This document shows, one piece after another, positions 21,055 to 26,234 of a DNA stretch of 50,637 bases (position 1 is its first letter; every line of letters starts with the position of its first letter). The stretch lies in the IMG/VR virus record IMGVR_UViG_3300027800_000005; one strand, given 5' to 3'. Origin of the DNA: a virus. Position numbers and translations under genes: made by a program. Below the pieces are notes generated by a model that ran no database searches, was not told the origin of the DNA, and worked only from the letters and a program-made list of their open reading frames with translations.

Positions 21055-21083
21055 TTGACAAGGCATTATATCTGTGATATAAT
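21055..21083 (+). promoter_or_regulatory. Consensus promoter P2.
   Basis: TTGACA 21055-60, 17-bp spacer, TG 21075-76, TATAAT 21078-83. A 7-bp hairpin at 21092-21110 begins 9 nt after the -10 element. Confidence 0.8.
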
Positions 21084-21130
21084 AGCTATAAGAGATGAGC
21101 AAATCGTCTCAAAATTAGGAGGTAGAAACC

Positions 21131-21424
21131 ATGACAATCAAAAATTTGACCATCAACAAACTCACCAATGCAGAGCTTGATGACTTGGGTTGCTTCGGGA
21201 TTGGTATTATGCTTTATGCGGGACAATTGAAAACAATGGTTAAGGGATTCAAAACTTGTAGCCTTGACGGTAACGGAAATATCTCGTTTGAGAACGAGAT
21301 GGAAGACTACAGACATGAGTTTATCAAGACGCTTGATGGATACGCATATCGTATTTACGACCAGATTAGGGGTGAATATTTCAAGCAAGTTCAACCCACC
21401 GAAGGATTGATATTTATTAGGTAA
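21131..21424 (+). CDS. Early hypothetical protein (97 aa), first cistron of ribozyme unit 1.
   Basis: RBS aggaggtagaaaccATG. The stop TAA at 21422-24 lies directly before hammerhead candidate 1. Confidence 0.7.
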   Translation: MTIKNLTINKLTNAELDDLGCFGIGIMLYAGQLKTMVKGFKTCSLDGNGNISFENEMEDYRHEFIKTLDGYAYRIYDQIRGEYFKQVQPTEGLIFIR

Positions 21425-21425
21425 A

Positions 21426-21481
21426 GCCGAAACCGGGGAAACCCGGTCTGCTGAGGAATAACTTCCCAGTACTGATGAGGC
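21426..21481 (+). ncRNA. Hammerhead ribozyme candidate HH1 (stem-II-open, type II topology). Predicted cleavage after C21448.
   Basis: GCC, GAAA (21429-32), stem III CCGGG[GAAA]CCCGG, UC, stem I (21449-71), CUGAUGA (21472-78), GGC. The full conserved core is present in the correct order. Covaries with HH2. Confidence 0.7.
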
Positions 21482-21508
21482 AGGTTAACAAATTAGGAGG
21501 TTGAAACT

Positions 21509-21640
21509 ATGGTATTCGCGATTTTGGTTATTGGCGGGTTGTGTTTTTGTCTTGGTATTTTATATCCATTGATAGCAATTATTGGGTATAAAATATTTGG
21601 TGGCAAGAAGTCTATTGCACAATATATCAAGACTTTGTAA
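21509..21640 (+). CDS. Small hydrophobic peptide (43 aa, not in the track).
   Basis: RBS aggaggttgaaactATG. Sequence MVFAILVIGGLCFCLGILYPLIAIIGYKIFGGKKSIAQYIKTL, with TAA at 21638-40. Confidence 0.55.
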   Translation: MVFAILVIGGLCFCLGILYPLIAIIGYKIFGGKKSIAQYIKTL

Positions 21641-21659
21641 AAAGCAGGAGGTAGAAACT

Positions 21660-21857
21660 ATGGTTCATTATAAATGTCAATTTTGTGGGCAAATGCAACA
21701 CTCCTCAAGCGAAGAAATGGAACAAGAAGGTTGTTTATACTGTGGCAGAATGGCAATAAAAATTGTCAAGGAACAAGACTACAAGAAGAGAATAAAACAG
21801 GAGGCAGAAACCAATGAAAATCTACGAAATAGTGGTTTGCTTAAGGTCGGGAACTAG
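21660..21857 (+). CDS. Zinc-ribbon protein (65 aa).
   Basis: RBS aggaggtagaaactATG at 21660 (the track start at 21582 is upstream of the RBS). CQFCG...CLYCG gives a CxxC-x17-CxxC pattern. Confidence 0.6.
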   Translation: MVHYKCQFCGQMQHSSSEEMEQEGCLYCGRMAIKIVKEQDYKKRIKQEAETNENLRNSGLLKVGN

Positions 21858-23145
21858 TAGTAAGGTTGCACTTGAAATTGTTGAGCAAAATACAAAATGT
21901 CACGAAACACTTCGTTTTCTTTGTAACCCATACATAAAGACAGGGTTGTGCCACGTAAAGGCACTTCATGAAGATTCTTTATTGTGCAGCGATTCGCAAG
22001 ACACCGACTATTTGGTAGAACTTCTTTTGGAGTATTTTTCAAGTTGTGGACCAGATGGTAACAGAGCTGAAAAAGAGGACTATGCAAAGACAATCTACGA
22101 ATACGGCCCGGATGATGAAGACTGGAAGTGGTTCGTTGAATTGGTTGCAACACACGGTAATAGTTCTGCATTTGGTGTAGGTCCACAAACATTAAGAAAG
22201 GCCGGCATTAATGTTCCTAGTTTTGGATGCCAATTGGGTGTTAAACTGCAAGATGTTGGTTCTGATTCTTGGCTTTGTACCAACGGCTACAGACAACATC
22301 ATTGGAGAATTACGGAGAAGATAGACGGAACTCGCAGATTGTTTATCAAGAATAAAGGCAAGGTTGAGGCATATAGTAGGAGTGGTAAAAAAGACGATAA
22401 ACTCAAACACATTACGGATTGGTTTGAGTCGAAAACAATTCCAGACAATAGGATTTACGATTGCGAATTAGTTGATGGTGATATGTATGACAACTGGAAA
22501 GAGGGTTACCAATCTTTTGAATTAAGAGCCAAGTCGATTGGTAAGGCCGCCAGAAAATCGAGCGACAACACATCGTTGATTGCAATATGTTTTGATTATT
22601 ATGACTTTGAAAAACCACATGACAACACAGTCATTCGTACTATTGAACTCAAGAGGATATTCAGAGAAAACCAACAGGATGGTCCAGTTCGACTTGTTAA
22701 GATATTTGGCAAGATGGATGGGTACGAGCGAGACAAACTGGATAGCACGCTCAAAACTGTGCTAGACCGCGGCGGAGAAGGCTTAATGCTTCAAGAACTT
22801 GGCAGTTCGTACGTTTTTGAGAGAACTCCAAACCTTATAAAAGTTAAACGACTGGAAGACTACACGGGAAAAATAGTTAAAGTCGTACCGGGAAGAATAG
22901 GAACGAGATTGGAAAATCTTATGTCTGCAATCCTTTGCGAAGTAGACGGTTGCGATAGTATGGTTTATGTCGGCACAGGACTTAGCGATTATGATAGAGA
23001 ATTATTTGCTAAGTATGCTGACGAACTTATCGGAGCTAAGGTTGAAATAGAGGCATTTTCCAAAACAATAAACAAAGACGGAAAAACATCATTGTGCTTT
23101 CCAGTGTTTAAGAGATGCCACCATAAAATATTTAAGGAGAGCTGA
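21814..23145 (+). CDS. ATP-dependent DNA ligase (nucleotidyltransferase superfamily) with an N-terminal extension.
   Basis: Motif I TEKIDGTR, motif IV GEGLMLQ, motif V LIKVKR. RBS aggaggcagaaaccaATG. Confidence 0.7.
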   Translation: MKIYEIVVCLRSGTSSKVALEIVEQNTKCHETLRFLCNPYIKTGLCHVKALHEDSLLCSDSQDTDYLVELLLEYFSSCGPDGNRAEKEDYAKTIYEYGPDDEDWKWFVELVATHGNSSAFGVGPQTLRKAGINVPSFGCQLGVKLQDVGSDSWLCTNGYRQHHWRITEKIDGTRRLFIKNKGKVEAYSRSGKKDDKLKHITDWFESKTIPDNRIYDCELVDGDMYDNWKEGYQSFELRAKSIGKAARKSSDNTSLIAICFDYYDFEKPHDNTVIRTIELKRIFRENQQDGPVRLVKIFGKMDGYERDKLDSTLKTVLDRGGEGLMLQELGSSYVFERTPNLIKVKRLEDYTGKIVKVVPGRIGTRLENLMSAILCEVDGCDSMVYVGTGLSDYDRELFAKYADELIGAKVEIEAFSKTINKDGKTSLCFPVFKRCHHKIFKES

Positions 23146-23146
23146 A

Positions 23147-23389
23147 ATGGAGAACAAAACATATTCTATCGGAGACACGCTGGCAGTTATGCGTGGTAAG
23201 AAGGCAGTATCATGCCAAGTTATTGAAAAAGGGATTGGCGAAACGAAGAATGGAACTACCATTACGTTTCAAGATGAACAGGTTATTTGGAGATTGGGGG
23301 CTAACAAGAAGTGGCCAAACTTTGTACACCAAGCATTCAGGGGAGAACTAGCCGAAAGGAATGATAACAATGCCGGAACAAAAACCTAA
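23147..23389 (+). CDS. Hypothetical protein (80 aa).
   Basis: RBS taaggagag. Tightly packed behind the ligase gene. Confidence 0.55.
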   Translation: MENKTYSIGDTLAVMRGKKAVSCQVIEKGIGETKNGTTITFQDEQVIWRLGANKKWPNFVHQAFRGELAERNDNNAGTKT

Positions 23390-23900
23390 AAAATTAGTTG
23401 GGTTCAGTGCAGAAAAAATATCAGAACGAGTTGCCAAAGAAGCTATTTTGATGGCATACGAATGTGAGAAGATTTCTGGACAAGAATTACTTAAGGCCGA
23501 TGAATACAAAAACAAAGCATATAAGTACCTCACAAACAAAAACCTGAAACACCTCGATGTAGAGGCTGCAGATAAAACTATAAGATTTCAGTCTGCAGAG
23601 AGAACTAACGTAACATATTTCCTTGATAAACTAAAGCAATCTTTGAGTATGCCTGTTCTACGTGAAGTTGTCATGAAGAAATACGAAGTCAAGGATATCG
23701 AGTTGCTCAAGGCTACAATGCAAAAATACAATGTTCCAGCAGATATTCTGAAAGATTGCTTGTCGATAACAGAAACTGTTGACAGAACAAGAATGGATGA
23801 ATTATTTAAAGCCGGACATATTACTATTGAACAACTGGAAGGTTGTTACAAACTGTCTACGAGCACATCATTAACATTAAAGGAGCTAGATAATAAATAG
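23370..23900 (+). CDS. Hypothetical protein (176 aa; alternative start at 23361).
   Basis: gaaagga lies 9 nt upstream of the ATG at 23370. No motif recognised. Confidence 0.55.
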   Translation: MPEQKPKKLVGFSAEKISERVAKEAILMAYECEKISGQELLKADEYKNKAYKYLTNKNLKHLDVEAADKTIRFQSAERTNVTYFLDKLKQSLSMPVLREVVMKKYEVKDIELLKATMQKYNVPADILKDCLSITETVDRTRMDELFKAGHITIEQLEGCYKLSTSTSLTLKELDNK

Positions 23901-23912
23901 GAGGCAGTAGCC

Positions 23913-24857
23913 ATGACTGATTATAATTCACCAGTGTTTATGGCAAAGGTTCTTGATGCATATAATATAGACTTTACGCAAAACAAGGTTGTTTGTCCTT
24001 TTCATGGTGACGTAAACCCCAGTATGAGTATTGACTTGGCAAAAAGCAGAGTATATTGTTTTGGGTGTCAAAAATCATATAGTGCTACACAATTCATAGA
24101 GGCTGCCGAACCAAAGATGAATAGACTACAAGTTTACAAGCGTATGGCAGAGATAGAAAACGGCATCAAGATTGACCTTAAACCACAACATATCAGAAAC
24201 AATAGTGATTGTGATTTCGTACAGTTGAGAATACAAGCAGAAGATTACTACTATAATCTACCAAAAACTGATTGGGCACATGGTGAGTGGACAGAAGAGC
24301 TTGACTATATGACCAAACGTGGTTTTACTACAGAGATTCTGAATAAATGTGGAGCTAAACTAAACTACAATGGCTGGTACCCGATTATTTTTCCTATAAT
24401 GGATAATGGAAAATTTAAAGGTTGGGTTTGTAGAACTACCAGAAAAGATATAGAGGCAAAAAGAAAGTACCTATACAATACTGGGTTCAGACGTTCTACG
24501 TGCGTGTGCGGGCGATACAACAGGGACAACCAGCTAATCGTAGTCGAGGGGTATATGGATATGCTTAAACTAAGGCAAGCAGGACTGACAAATGTTGTTG
24601 CATTGCTTGGTTGGAAGGCTAGTCAAGAGCAGGTTCAGATGATTAAAACTGTAGGCATTAAACACATTATTTCTGCATTGGACAATGACGAGAGTGGAAT
24701 TAAGGGCGATGCACATTTACGGACTTTAGGATTCGATTCAGTAGTGCGATGGCAGTTTGGTGCAGGCCATAAAGACCCTGGTGACCAGACAGCTAGCGAA
24801 ATAAAAAATATTTATAAAAAACTAAAAATAAGTGTTGACAAAGCAAATCGGATGTGA
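23913..24857 (+). CDS. dnaG: DNA primase (CHC2 zinc finger + TOPRIM).
   Basis: CPFHGDVNPSMSI....VYCFGCQ zinc finger. TOPRIM motifs VVEGYMD and DNDESG. Confidence 0.85.
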   Translation: MTDYNSPVFMAKVLDAYNIDFTQNKVVCPFHGDVNPSMSIDLAKSRVYCFGCQKSYSATQFIEAAEPKMNRLQVYKRMAEIENGIKIDLKPQHIRNNSDCDFVQLRIQAEDYYYNLPKTDWAHGEWTEELDYMTKRGFTTEILNKCGAKLNYNGWYPIIFPIMDNGKFKGWVCRTTRKDIEAKRKYLYNTGFRRSTCVCGRYNRDNQLIVVEGYMDMLKLRQAGLTNVVALLGWKASQEQVQMIKTVGIKHIISALDNDESGIKGDAHLRTLGFDSVVRWQFGAGHKDPGDQTASEIKNIYKKLKISVDKANRM

Positions 24858-24863
24858 TATAAT
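24835..24863 (+). promoter_or_regulatory. Consensus promoter P3, overlapping the primase 3' end.
   Basis: TTGACA 24835-40, 17-bp spacer, TG 24855-56, TATAAT 24858-63. An 8-bp hairpin at 24872-24894 begins 9 nt after the -10 element. Confidence 0.8.
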
Positions 24864-24915
24864 TGATATAGAGATTGAGGATTGCACTCAATCTACTACG
24901 TAGGAGGTAGAAACC

Positions 24916-25203
24916 ATGAAAATTTACAAACAAGCTGTCATCGAGCTGGACTTTCCAGAACGTCCAGAACTTCATTCCATTGTTACCTTTACCTTGACGG
25001 ACTCAAAAGCGTTTCAGTACGGAAACCAGACTATCTTGCTGGTTGACCAGGTTTGCGAAATGCCGGATTTTAATGAACAGAAAGCAATCGACACGCGGTA
25101 TTCGGACATTAGCAATTTTGATAAACTGTGCTTGGATTGGTTGAAACACGAAAAGCTCAAGCACACGGCCAAAGTTCTGATTAGCTCCAAAAAGCTCTGG
25201 TAA
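24916..25203 (+). CDS. Early hypothetical protein (95 aa), first cistron of ribozyme unit 2.
   Basis: RBS aggaggtagaaaccATG, identical to that of 21131. Confidence 0.7.
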   Translation: MKIYKQAVIELDFPERPELHSIVTFTLTDSKAFQYGNQTILLVDQVCEMPDFNEQKAIDTRYSDISNFDKLCLDWLKHEKLKHTAKVLISSKKLW

Positions 25204-25218
25204 AATCGAATAAGCAAA

Positions 25219-25272
25219 GCCGAAACTGGGGGTAACCCCAGTCTACTGGATATATACCAGTACTGATGAGGC
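25219..25272 (+). ncRNA. Hammerhead ribozyme candidate HH2 (stem-II-open). Predicted cleavage after C25243.
   Basis: GCC, GAAA (25222-25), stem III CUGGGG[GUAA]CCCCAG, UC, stem I UACUGG[AUAUAUA]CCAGUA, CUGAUGA (25263-69), GGC. Confidence 0.75.
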
Positions 25273-25293
25273 AGAAAACAGGAGGTTGAAACT

Positions 25294-25470
25294 ATGACAC
25301 ATGCAGTAGGAACTAGGACAAGCGTTCGTGGTAACATGAGGGTTTATCTGGCAATAAAAAAACAAATTGACACATTGAGATACCTTGGTATTAAGCTGGG
25401 GAAAACCTGGTTTATACATATTTATTTTAAGGGAGGCTACCTACTATGGCAGTTAAAGTCGGGTTGCTGA
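25294..25470 (+). CDS. Small hypothetical protein (58 aa, not in the track).
   Basis: RBS aggaggttgaaactATG, identical to those of 21509 and 40732. Open to TGA at 25468-70, overlapping the next gene start. Confidence 0.45.
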   Translation: MTHAVGTRTSVRGNMRVYLAIKKQIDTLRYLGIKLGKTWFIHIYFKGGYLLWQLKSGC

Positions 25471-26234
25471 GTGCAATCAAAAAAGACGTCGAGAAAACTG
25501 GTTCTAGCAGAGGCAAATTCTTCTATGTCAAGAGCGGAGCTAAAGCGAGAATTCGTTTCTTGGAGGACATGGACAACGGCAGGGTTGTGCATATGCATGA
25601 CAGATGGGACCCTCAACTGAAGGTACCGTGTGAGAAGAACCGAGACGAAGACGCAGAATGCCGTTATTGCGGCGTTGAAGGAGTTAGAAACAGAGATACC
25701 TATGCATGGTCGGTATGGGACTATGATGCGAACGAAGTCAAGATATTCATGTACCCGGCTAATCAGTGTACACCGGTACCTGGATTGGTTGCATTGTACG
25801 AGACGTACGGCACTATCATTGACAGAGACTTCAGTGTTTCGCGGTCTGGGAATGGTACGGCTACATCGTATAGCCTGATACCGCTTGACAAGACAAAATT
25901 CAGAAACGAAAACGCCAAACCGTTTACTGACAAACTGTTTTGGAAGGCAATCAACGACGGCTATCCCGCACCTGATGGCGAAAAGGCCGAGGTTGAGGAT
26001 GATGAAGATGAAAAACCTGCAAAGGTAAAACCGGCTCCTGATAAAACCGAAAAGGTTCTCGCAGATGCCGAGGAAACCAGCTACGAAGATATGACTCCGA
26101 AGGAATTATATTCGTTGTGCAAGGTTCGTGACATCTTAGTAAAGACTCAGATGGAGGCAGAGTACTACATCAAAAAGCTTGAGAAATATGACCTTGAACA
26201 CGGTGACGATGAGTTCTGGGGAGACGACGAATAG
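25446..26234 (+). CDS. T4 gp32-like zinc-containing single-stranded DNA-binding protein.
   Basis: The spacing H-x13-C-x9-C-x2-C (HMHDRWDPQLKVPCEKNRDEDAECRYCG) reproduces the gp32 His64/Cys77/Cys87/Cys90 zinc-ligand spacing. Acidic C-terminus EFWGDDE. Confidence 0.6.
   Translation: MAVKVGLLSAIKKDVEKTGSSRGKFFYVKSGAKARIRFLEDMDNGRVVHMHDRWDPQLKVPCEKNRDEDAECRYCGVEGVRNRDTYAWSVWDYDANEVKIFMYPANQCTPVPGLVALYETYGTIIDRDFSVSRSGNGTATSYSLIPLDKTKFRNENAKPFTDKLFWKAINDGYPAPDGEKAEVEDDEDEKPAKVKPAPDKTEKVLADAEETSYEDMTPKELYSLCKVRDILVKTQMEAEYYIKKLEKYDLEHGDDEFWGDDE

Follow-up and report, generated by a model that had tools for sequence, protein, structure and literature searches.

What does a self-cleaving ribozyme do between the first gene and the replication genes of an early phage operon? 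The question is raised by a short element, here called HH1, in the viral record IMGVR_UViG_3300027800_000005, a stretch of 50,637 nucleotides (nt) that was analysed over its whole length and is referred to as the window; coordinates are those of the window and of its + strand unless stated otherwise. HH1 had been predicted to be a type II hammerhead ribozyme located between the stop codon of an early open reading frame (ORF) and the ribosome-binding site (RBS) of the next. With a probability of roughly 0.78, it is a type II hammerhead in an early transcript that cuts after the first cistron, leaving the two halves as separate mRNAs.

A complete type II hammerhead

Upon reading of the sequence from 21420 to 21511, every coordinate of the original prediction for the stop codon, core, stems, loops and RBS proved correct. 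A TAA stop (21422-24) is followed by GCC (21426-28), GAAA (21429-32) and stem III, in which C21433-G21437 pair with C21442-G21446 beneath a GAAA loop to give 5 base pairs (bp), or 6 bp if the A15.1-U16.1 pair is included. Then come U21447, C21448 and stem I (21449-71), composed of UGCUG, the bulged A21454, GGAA, the loop UAAC, UUCC and CAGUA. CUGAUGA (21472-78) and GGC (21479-81) complete the element, and AGGAGG (21495-21500) and an ATG at 21509 lie downstream, which confirms the placement between an early stop codon and the next RBS.

Type II hammerheads require C3 U4 G5 A6 N7 G8 A9, G12 A13 A14, the A15.1-U16.1 pair, H17 and the core-adjacent pairs (PMC3088659). In HH1 this catalytic core is complete, with CUGAUGA as C3-A9, GAA (21429-31) as G12-A14 and C21448 as H17, and Watson-Crick pairs adjoin it at A21432-U21447 (15.1-16.1), G21479-C21428 (10.1-11.1) and U21449-A21471 (1.1-2.1). 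The topology is likewise that of type II: the 5' strand of stem II, GAAA, the stem III hairpin, H17, the stem I hairpin, CUGANGA and the 3' strand of stem II follow one another in this order.

Both strands of the window were searched by cmscan with 4227 Rfam families at gathering thresholds. Exactly two matches were returned, both to Hammerhead_II (RF02276), on the + strand and over the full model. HH1 matches at 21425-21489 (model positions 1-66) and scores 41.3 bits (E = 4.2e-5), where 37 bits are required for gathering; the other match, HH2, is treated below. A comparison with covariance models had been proposed as a check on the hammerhead assignment, and the Hammerhead_II score lies above the gathering score and far beyond chance. 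A permissive scan with E up to 1 recovered only HH1, HH2 and one unrelated, sub-threshold GP20-b match, and no other ribozyme family in the window. A covariance model specific to the subtype gave HH1 80.3 bits, HH1 itself being among its training sequences. Energy minimisation predicts stems I and III of both copies.

The original prediction had regarded the three pairs of stem II as a weak point. This concern is unfounded, as natural hammerheads often have a stem II of 2 bp, one tested type II example has 1 bp (PMC3088659), and a pseudoknot supplies a tertiary contact in HH1. The assignment as a type II (stem-II-open) hammerhead is upheld by the match to RF02276 above threshold, the full core, a pseudoknot in the register of the family and compensatory changes in sister phages. 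Hence, HH1 is almost certainly a genuine hammerhead motif, and its sequence makes cleavage in vivo likely. The earlier description of HH1 stands as given; absent from it were the pseudoknot, the second copy (at least in that finding) and a perfect promoter at 21055-21083.

The pseudoknot and the hammerhead family

Most type II hammerheads form a pseudoknot of at least 4 bp, in which loop I pairs with the nucleotides that directly follow stem II, and its disruption lowers the cleavage rate 20-fold to more than 100-fold at 0.5 mM Mg2+ (PMC3088659). The corresponding pairs in HH1 are U59-A87, A60-U86, A61-U85, C62-G84 and U63-G83 (last two digits of the positions), i.e. four Watson-Crick pairs and one G-U pair. 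For comparison, hammerheads of the same subtype were collected from IMG/VR by their core pattern (113 contig stretches). A covariance model built without the pseudoknot then aligned 150 matches, 130 of them distinct, in an alignment fitted to stems I-III and not to the pseudoknot.

Among the 130 distinct sequences, 95.0% of the cells of the pair count are paired compared with 69.5% in column shuffles, and 20 of the 22 pairs of the alignment have changed on both sides. The covariation score amounts to 0.647, as against 0.170 in the shuffles and at most 0.11 when the partners are slid by 1-3 columns, and the observed values were reached in none of 500 shuffles. In the pseudoknot helix (columns 61-65 with 102-106), pairing reaches 86.8% and each of the five pairs shows double changes; HH1 has standard pairs at all five columns. 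A simple count of loop/tail pairing finds at least 4 bp in 117 of 120 members; since shuffled tails average 3.9 bp, this count is weak and the pseudoknot rests on the register-specific covariation count instead. As its pseudoknot falls into the family register, HH1 can be considered fully canonical, which also removes the worry about stem II. The pseudoknot probably holds stems I and II of HH1 parallel.

The surroundings of HH1 are those of its family. A Shine-Dalgarno (SD) sequence and a start codon follow within 80 nt in 116 of 123 subtype members, the median distance between GGCAG and the start being 24 nt (25 nt for HH1, 19 nt for HH2). Likewise, in 81 of the 123 an ORF of 50 codons or more ends within the 30 nt before the hammerhead, mostly at a distance of 0-2 nt (1 nt for HH1). 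By these counts, the succession of stop codon, hammerhead and RBS is the family norm, and both contexts match the proposal that such ribozymes process transcripts (PMC3088659). Judged from sequence and setting, HH1 is thus a fully canonical type II member in the usual habitat of its family. The IMG/VR set also includes dense type II arrays, with ~12 copies in 5.3 kb of one contig (L064, 7819-13127) and 4-6 in others (L025, L027/L067, L045, L050, L244/L246), so that almost all genes of such a block are separated by ribozymes.

A second copy

HH2 lies in the next transcription unit and has a complete core as well (CUGAUGA at 25263-69, GAA at 25222-24 and C25243), together with the core-adjacent pairs A25225-U25242, G25270-C25221 and U25244-A25262. 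Relative to HH1, the changes in stems I and III are compensatory, while the cores and stem II (GCC/GGC) are identical. No pseudoknot was found in HH2: the loop AUAUAUA and the tail GAAAAC pair over 2 bp at best, and no pair falls into the family columns. By its sequence, HH2 is therefore placed in the small minority of type II hammerheads that lack this contact, for which reason it probably cleaves more slowly than HH1.

Two early transcription units and their proposed processing

Each ribozyme follows a perfect promoter at a distance of ~360-375 nt, HH1 being preceded by P1 and HH2 by P2. Six perfect TTGACA-N17-TATAAT promoters occur in the window (positions 1929, 21055, 24835, 39019, 48001 and 48528), all on the + strand and five of them with an extended -10 TG, where 0.12 would be expected by chance. 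The P2 unit consists of the promoter, an 8-bp 5' hairpin whose sequence is unlike that of P1, an RBS context like AGGAGGTAGAAACCATG, an ORF of 95 amino acids (aa) and HH2. A terminator scan called no + strand terminator between promoter and ribozyme in either unit. The 17-mer AGGAGGTTGAAACTATG that follows HH1 recurs identically after HH2 (25280-96) and in a promoter-proximal leader (40718-34), and near-identical versions follow P1 and P2. This RBS context, which can be written AGGAGGT[AT]GA[AC]AC[CT]ATG, mostly marks the first gene that follows a promoter or a hammerhead. The predicted 3' cleavage products thus resemble primary transcripts, as they have a hairpin at the 5' terminus and, beyond a short spacer, a consensus RBS.

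Several side observations concern the same signals. The RBS context has seven copies (21117, 21495, 21646, 24902, 25280, 35917 and 40718), where none is expected by chance. Five further promoters have one mismatch (26773, 35851, 40658, 46010 and 47966) and, together with the perfect ones, provide a ready transcription map of the phage, several leaders of which open with AGAGA followed by a 5' hairpin. A general rule that a consensus promoter lies a few hundred nt upstream of hammerheads was unconvincing: it applied to 6 of 110 IMG/VR hammerheads compared with 2.6% at random, the hosts being diverse.

In the proposed course of events, host RNA polymerase would start at P1 and transcribe the 5' hairpin, the 97-aa cistron and HH1. 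The 2'-OH of C21448 would then attack its own 3' phosphate, according to the chemistry of the class, and the RNA would be cut between 21448 and 21449. Since the cut would assign all of stem III to the 5' product and all of stem I to the 3' product, nothing but the 3-bp stem II would join the halves, which would separate, with the pseudoknot staying within the 3' product. The upstream RNA would be a monocistronic message of ~360 nt for the 97-aa protein, ending in the stem III hairpin and UC with a 2',3'-cyclic phosphate; stem III hairpins have predicted energies of -10.9 to -13.3 kcal/mol (HH1, -10.9). The downstream RNA would begin with a 5'-OH at U21449, the first nucleotide of stem I, without any unpaired nucleotide and 46 nt before the consensus RBS, and would encode the 43-aa ORF, the Zn-ribbon ORF and the ligase, continuing to the primase. 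HH2 could act likewise in the next unit (P2, 95-aa ORF, HH2, 58-aa ORF and SSB-like gene).

The cut would uncouple the promoter-proximal accessory gene from the replication genes and thereby permit separate mRNA stability or translation. The first mRNA would gain a terminator-like 3' hairpin end without a polymerase stop, and the downstream RNA, with its strong RBS and a stabilising hairpin at the 5' end, would look like a primary transcript. Such a course agrees with the proposal that phage hammerheads cut long transcripts into gene- or operon-sized mRNAs (PMC3088659) and with a review from 2019, according to which the processing could give transcripts of differing stability, its purpose being undefined (PMC6765202). 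That uncoupling combined with terminator-like 3' end formation is the function of HH1 is suggested tentatively, at slightly less than even odds. Another idea, the unmasking of the RBS by cleavage, was dropped, as the predicted probability that the SD sequence is unpaired changes inconsistently upon cleavage (HH1, 0.43 to 0.40; HH2, 0.23 to 0.75; sister phages L120, 0.58 to 0.59, and L123, 0.38 to 0.32).

Hammerheads and terminators in sister phages

Relatives of the phage were found via full-length ligase homologues with 52-68% identity (L114-L121), and L123 as well as more distant phages via a primase profile. The relatives keep the gene order Zn-ribbon ORF, ligase, two small genes, primase and SSB-like gene. 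A promoter equivalent to P1 is kept in L114, L115, L119 and L121, and P2 is kept at the same place in L114, L115, L118, L119, L120, L121 and L123.

Two of these phages, both among the closest relatives, have hammerheads of their own. In L120 (ligase 68% identical), one lies directly upstream of the ligase gene (Rfam, 37.2 bits), with A as H17, C as N7 and a compensatory change from C-G to U-A in stem III; stem I has the bulged A of HH1, and the pseudoknot extends over 6 bp (UUAACC/GGUUAA). In L123 (primase 64% identical), the hammerhead occupies the position equivalent to that of HH2 (38.6 bits with Rfam, 59 bits with the subtype model). Its stem II is AAC/GUU instead of GCC/GGC, its pseudoknot GAGCU/AGCUC, and the layout of promoter, hairpin, 95-aa ORF, ribozyme and RBS is that of the window. 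Among HH1, HH2 and these two, the changes in stems I, II and III are compensatory and the core differs only at N7 and H17, which argues for selection on the active fold. Searches of the other relatives were negative: L114, L118, L119 and L121 have no Rfam ribozyme or RNA in the corresponding slots at E up to 5, L115 has no Rfam ribozyme at the gathering threshold, and the subtype model found no hammerhead in L114-L121 other than that of L120 at E up to 10, nor any in 30 more distant relatives.

The possibility of a duplicated module was considered and rejected, as the 97-aa and 95-aa ORFs are unrelated and the ORFs flanking the hammerheads of L120 and L123 are unrelated to those of the window. 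The similarity of the units is therefore limited to promoter, leader design, ribozyme and RBS.

What the relatives have in the places of HH1 and HH2 was examined in two slots: slot 1 follows the first ORF or ORFs downstream of P1, and slot 2 separates the short ORF after P2 from the SSB-like gene. In L114, L115, L119 and L121, slot 2 contains a GC-rich hairpin with a T-run that is called as a + strand intrinsic terminator, the hairpin of L121 reaching -17 kcal/mol (z = -3.5); L118 has only an AT-rich hairpin there. Slot 1 holds a terminator-like hairpin of -14.7 kcal/mol in L119, a strong 10-bp hairpin without a T-run in L114 and, in L121, a hairpin of about -13 kcal/mol after the ortholog of the 97-aa ORF. 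The terminator sites of the sister phages are L121 5068-5087, L114 13122-13139, L119 6623-6642 and 2224-2245, and L115 13279-13296. They stand directly before the RBS of the SSB-like gene (L119 2224-2245: before that of the next early gene) with no space for a new promoter, so that the replication genes of the sister phages need read-through or antitermination. The small ORFs in both slots differ between the phages and are not conserved. Taken together, this phage group has two variable accessory-gene slots after its early promoters, the 3' side of which is closed by a terminator or hairpin or else by a hammerhead.

In phage lambda, terminators or attenuators similarly follow the first early gene (pL-N-tL1, pR-cro-tR1). 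HH1 and HH2 share the operon position of these lambda-type terminators and of those in L114, L115, L119 and L121, namely after a promoter-proximal short gene and before replication genes, and in all cases the first mRNA would receive a 3'-terminal GC hairpin. While a terminator halts the polymerase and restricts transcription of what follows, a hammerhead lets transcription run and then splits the RNAs, without a U-tract. Conceivably, hammerheads and intrinsic terminators are interchangeable 3'-end modules for the promoter-proximal early mRNA of this lineage, an idea suggested by the sequence comparison that should be regarded as doubtful for now. An equally speculative extension is that the ribozyme serves as a "terminator that does not terminate", which would provide a hairpin-ended short mRNA along with a full dose of a separately stabilised replication mRNA. 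The occupation of the same slot by a hammerhead (this phage and L123; L120 nearby) or a terminator (L114, L115, L119 and L121) represents a natural swap experiment. If true, the interchange would be a concrete function for phage hammerheads, whose role has been open since 2011.

Weighing the alternatives

Several findings weigh against processing by HH1 and HH2 as proposed. In a context of 121 nt, the minimum free energy structure pairs the 5' GCC of HH1 with the SD region and not with GGC, so that stem II is not predicted, and the fold z-scores of the whole hammerhead regions are unremarkable (-1.1 and -1.4). HH2 is devoid of a pseudoknot that is nearly universal in the family and affects the rate more than 100-fold in a tested example (PMC3088659). 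Five of the eight closest relatives have no hammerhead, from which it follows that the element is dispensable for this type of phage. The spacing between promoter and hammerhead is not general in the IMG/VR set, and the equivalence of terminator and ribozyme is one of position only. Finally, in Bacillota a 5'-OH end can favour decay over protection, glmS being the precedent.

This last point leads to the most serious alternative, in which the same ribozyme has the opposite purpose: the 5'-OH would expose the replication mRNA to decay from its 5' end and HH1 would act as an attenuator, like a leaky terminator. The terminators of the sister phages, which stand before the SSB-like gene without promoter space and reduce downstream expression to read-through, fit this idea. 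So do the Bacillota-like traits of the phage (similarity of the large terminase, strong AGGAGG RBSs and extended -10 promoters) and the decay precedent of glmS and RNase J1 in Bacillus, which is alluded to in PMC6765202. However, the 3' product opens directly with a stem followed by an optimal RBS, as primary leaders do, which suggests stabilisation, and the essential genes for ligase, primase, SSB-like protein and DNA polymerase lie downstream. An attenuator is therefore considered unlikely.

Far less probable is a chance match or a decayed, inert hammerhead relic that is kept as an intergenic hairpin region. Although HH2 has no pseudoknot, most relatives have no hammerhead and some phage hammerhead-like sequences were reported to be inactive (PMC3088659), two matches above curated thresholds within 50 kb (E = 4e-5 and 8.5e-5) without any deviation in the core are difficult to reconcile with this reading. 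Moreover, the pseudoknot of HH1 is intact, and the compensatory changes among HH1, HH2, L120 and L123 point to purifying selection on the active fold.

Still more remote is the notion that HH1 and HH2 act as a pair, with the 3.8-kb RNA between them (21449-25243) being circularised or its flanks being spliced through RtcB-type ligation or a reverse hammerhead reaction, possibly with formation of a chimeric ribozyme. The identical cores and stems II (GCC/GGC) and the end chemistry of the class would allow for this, and the possibility of pairing and circularisation has been raised (PMC3088659). Yet, no spliced or circular products were found for clustered phage hammerheads (PMC3088659), P2 lies inside the interval, so that most RNAs containing HH2 would be without HH1, and L120 and L123 give no sign that the ribozymes must come in pairs.

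That the element is no ribozyme at all, and instead terminates transcription intrinsically, serves as a hairpin for processing (by RNase III or otherwise) or is a DNA repeat of intergenic regions, is the least probable explanation: it occupies a position where relatives have terminators or plain hairpins and stem III is a strong GC hairpin, but stem III is followed by UCUGCUG and neither hairpin by a T-run, no + strand terminator is called at 21400-21500 or 25200-25300, and a DNA repeat or hairpin would not keep 7 + 4 unpaired core nucleotides with compensatory stems.

Comparison with known systems

HH1 shares with the type II hammerheads of RF02276 the core, the permutation (stem II open, stems I and III capped), the short stem II and the pseudoknot between loop I and 3' tail. 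The setting is also the same, i.e. intergenic in phage or prophage operons and on the coding strand, with no essential difference (PMC3088659). A difference is that the phage that hosts HH1 belongs to an uncultured lineage without a close GenBank relative. Clustered prophage hammerheads are known from Clostridium scindens, Azorhizobium caulinodans and Agrobacterium tumefaciens ardA (PMC3088659). Like HH1 and HH2, and like those on the IMG/VR contigs, they are co-directional ribozymes that bracket small non-conserved genes and for which a processing role was proposed. In contrast to these cases, each hammerhead described here belongs to a defined unit (promoter, 5' hairpin, first cistron, ribozyme), and relatives show terminators instead.

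In the haloviruses HF1 and HF2, a hammerhead lies 13 nt before the helicase start codon, and a mapped 5' end coincides with the cleavage site (PMC3088659). Like HH1, this hammerhead belongs to the early region of a lytic virus and directly precedes the gene with which a polycistronic replication transcript opens. It differs in that the viruses are archaeal and the element is a variant hammerhead and not a type II with pseudoknot; the comparison with terminators is available only here.

RiboJ and related insulators were engineered from a satellite RNA hammerhead with an added hairpin. As in RiboJ, the hammerhead HH1 is positioned between upstream sequence and RBS and would give a defined hairpin 5' end independent of the upstream sequence; HH1 differs in being a natural arrangement in which stem I itself provides the hairpin. 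The glmS ribozyme is ligand-dependent and destabilises its own mRNA. It has in common with the prediction for HH1 the self-cleavage in a bacterial mRNA leader and a downstream 5'-OH product with a fate set by cellular RNases (PMC6765202). Structurally, glmS is unrelated to HH1, for which no ligand dependence is suggested.

The HH1 ribozyme itself is one more well-formed example in a family of thousands; what is added here are the pseudoknot, the second copy, the promoter-defined units and the terminators in syntenic slots of sister phages. The purpose of hammerheads in phage operons has been described as undetermined (PMC6765202), and the swap comparison provides predictions on RNA ends, mRNA levels and stability. 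In addition, promoter, 5' hairpin, gene, ribozyme and RBS together form a compact natural part for synthetic biology.

The phage genome

All large ORFs of the window are on the + strand, the G+C content is 40% and tRNAs are absent. Packaging and structural functions are represented by a large terminase, an SPP1-type portal, minor capsid protein 2, a GP20-type scaffold and tail proteins, and replication by an ATP-dependent DNA ligase, a DnaG-type primase, an SSB-like protein and a DNA polymerase III alpha-like polymerase. Another assembly of this phage starts elsewhere (L122; JGI 3300004241, Ga0066604_10000134, 50,550 bp), and an identical ligase was observed on at least seven contigs of ~50.5 kb, one of which begins near window position 21590. 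The differing start points indicate a molecule that is circular, circularly permuted or terminally redundant, and the window is probably a complete genome.

No close phage relative was found in GenBank by megablast, and neither an exact 18-mer search of IMG/VR nor the ligase as a single query against IMG/VR gave a match. The large terminase shares less than 40% identity with its counterparts in Bacillota phages (Latilactobacillus, Clostridium, phage D6E), and the host is probably a low-G+C Gram-positive bacterium, as far as sequence comparison can tell. A 17-mer from the 3' half of HH1 has 33 matches in 185,579 genomes, and the model recognised complete hammerheads in three of them (Deferribacterales, Oscillospiraceae and a weak one in Nitrospira). 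Host inference from this 17-mer was dropped, since the number of remaining matches is near the chance level for 596 Gb.

Features of the two units and neighbouring genes

Table 1. Features of the HH1 and HH2 transcription units in the window.
Feature	Position	Strand	Basis or remark
HH1, type II hammerhead ribozyme	21425..21489	+	Rfam RF02276
HH1 stem II	21426-28 with 21479-81	+	Sequence read
HH1 G12-A14	21429-31	+	Sequence read
HH1 stem III	21432-47	+	Sequence read
HH1 C17; predicted cleavage between 21448 and 21449	21448	+	Sequence read
HH1 stem I	21449-71	+	Sequence read
HH1 C3-A9	21472-78	+	Sequence read
HH1 3' tail	21482-89	+	Rfam match reaching 8 nt beyond stem II
HH1 pseudoknot, loop I strand UAACU	21459..21463	+	Pairs with 21483-21487
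HH1 pseudoknot, 3' tail strand GGUUA	21483..21487	+	Same covarying family columns
HH2, second type II hammerhead	25218..25280	+	Rfam RF02276, 40.1 bits, E = 8.5e-5
HH2 stem II	25219-21 with 25270-72	+	Sequence
HH2 stem III	25225-42	+	Sequence
HH2 C17; predicted cleavage between 25243 and 25244	25243	+	Sequence
HH2 stem I	25244-62	+	Sequence
HH2 CUGAUGA	25263-69	+	Sequence
Promoter P1, TTGACA-17 nt-TATAAT, extended -10 TG	21055..21083	+	12/12 consensus; predicted start near 21090
P1 leader 5' hairpin, 7 bp, loop GCAAA	21092..21110	+	Fold -11 kcal/mol, z = -3.4
97-aa ORF, first P1 cistron, RBS context AGGAGGTAGAAACCATG	21131..21424	+	ORF list
RBS and start codon AGGAGGTTGAAACTATG of the gene after HH1	21495..21511	+	Sequence
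43-aa hydrophobic ORF, first cistron of predicted 3' product	21509..21640	+	ORF list
Zn-ribbon ORF	21660-21857	+	Follows 43-aa ORF
ATP-dependent DNA ligase	21814-23145	+	Follows Zn-ribbon ORF
Promoter P2, perfect, extended -10, inside 3' end of primase gene	24835..24863	+	Consensus match
95-aa ORF, first P2 cistron	24916..25203	+	ORF list
RBS AGGAGG (25280-85) and 58-aa ORF (25294-25470)	25280..25470	+	Downstream of HH2
SSB-like gene	25446-26234	+	Follows 58-aa ORF

The 97-aa ORF has no match in Pfam or PHROG, and a search of a collection of 5.8 billion proteins returned only the protein itself. In L121, the equivalent promoter is followed first by an ortholog with 41% identity. In the second unit, the 58-aa ORF after HH2 has a perfect RBS, overlaps the start of the SSB-like gene by 25 nt, has no homologue in L123 and was not called when JGI annotated the same phage. 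Possibly it is no real gene, in which case HH2 would lie in a 150-nt leader of the SSB-like gene.

An ORF of ~65 aa with a CxxC...CxxC Zn-ribbon is kept immediately upstream of the ligase gene, which it overlaps (L114 9866-10041; L121 1617-1811); the source annotations of both relatives leave it uncalled and show an intergenic gap. The ligase carries an N-terminal extension of ~130 aa that is absent from most of its homologues of ~295 aa.

Outside the two units, the sub-threshold match to the GP20-b RNA (RF03003; 2048-2107, + strand) covers the full model and reaches 33.8 bits, the gathering score being 36.2. Its place is the 5' untranslated region between the perfect promoter at 1929-1957, directly after which a long hairpin is found (1966-1999), and a Phage_scaffold gene (PF06810, GP20 family; ORF 2125-2742). 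As this context is the one that gave the motif its name, the match is probably a genuine GP20-b RNA just under the threshold.

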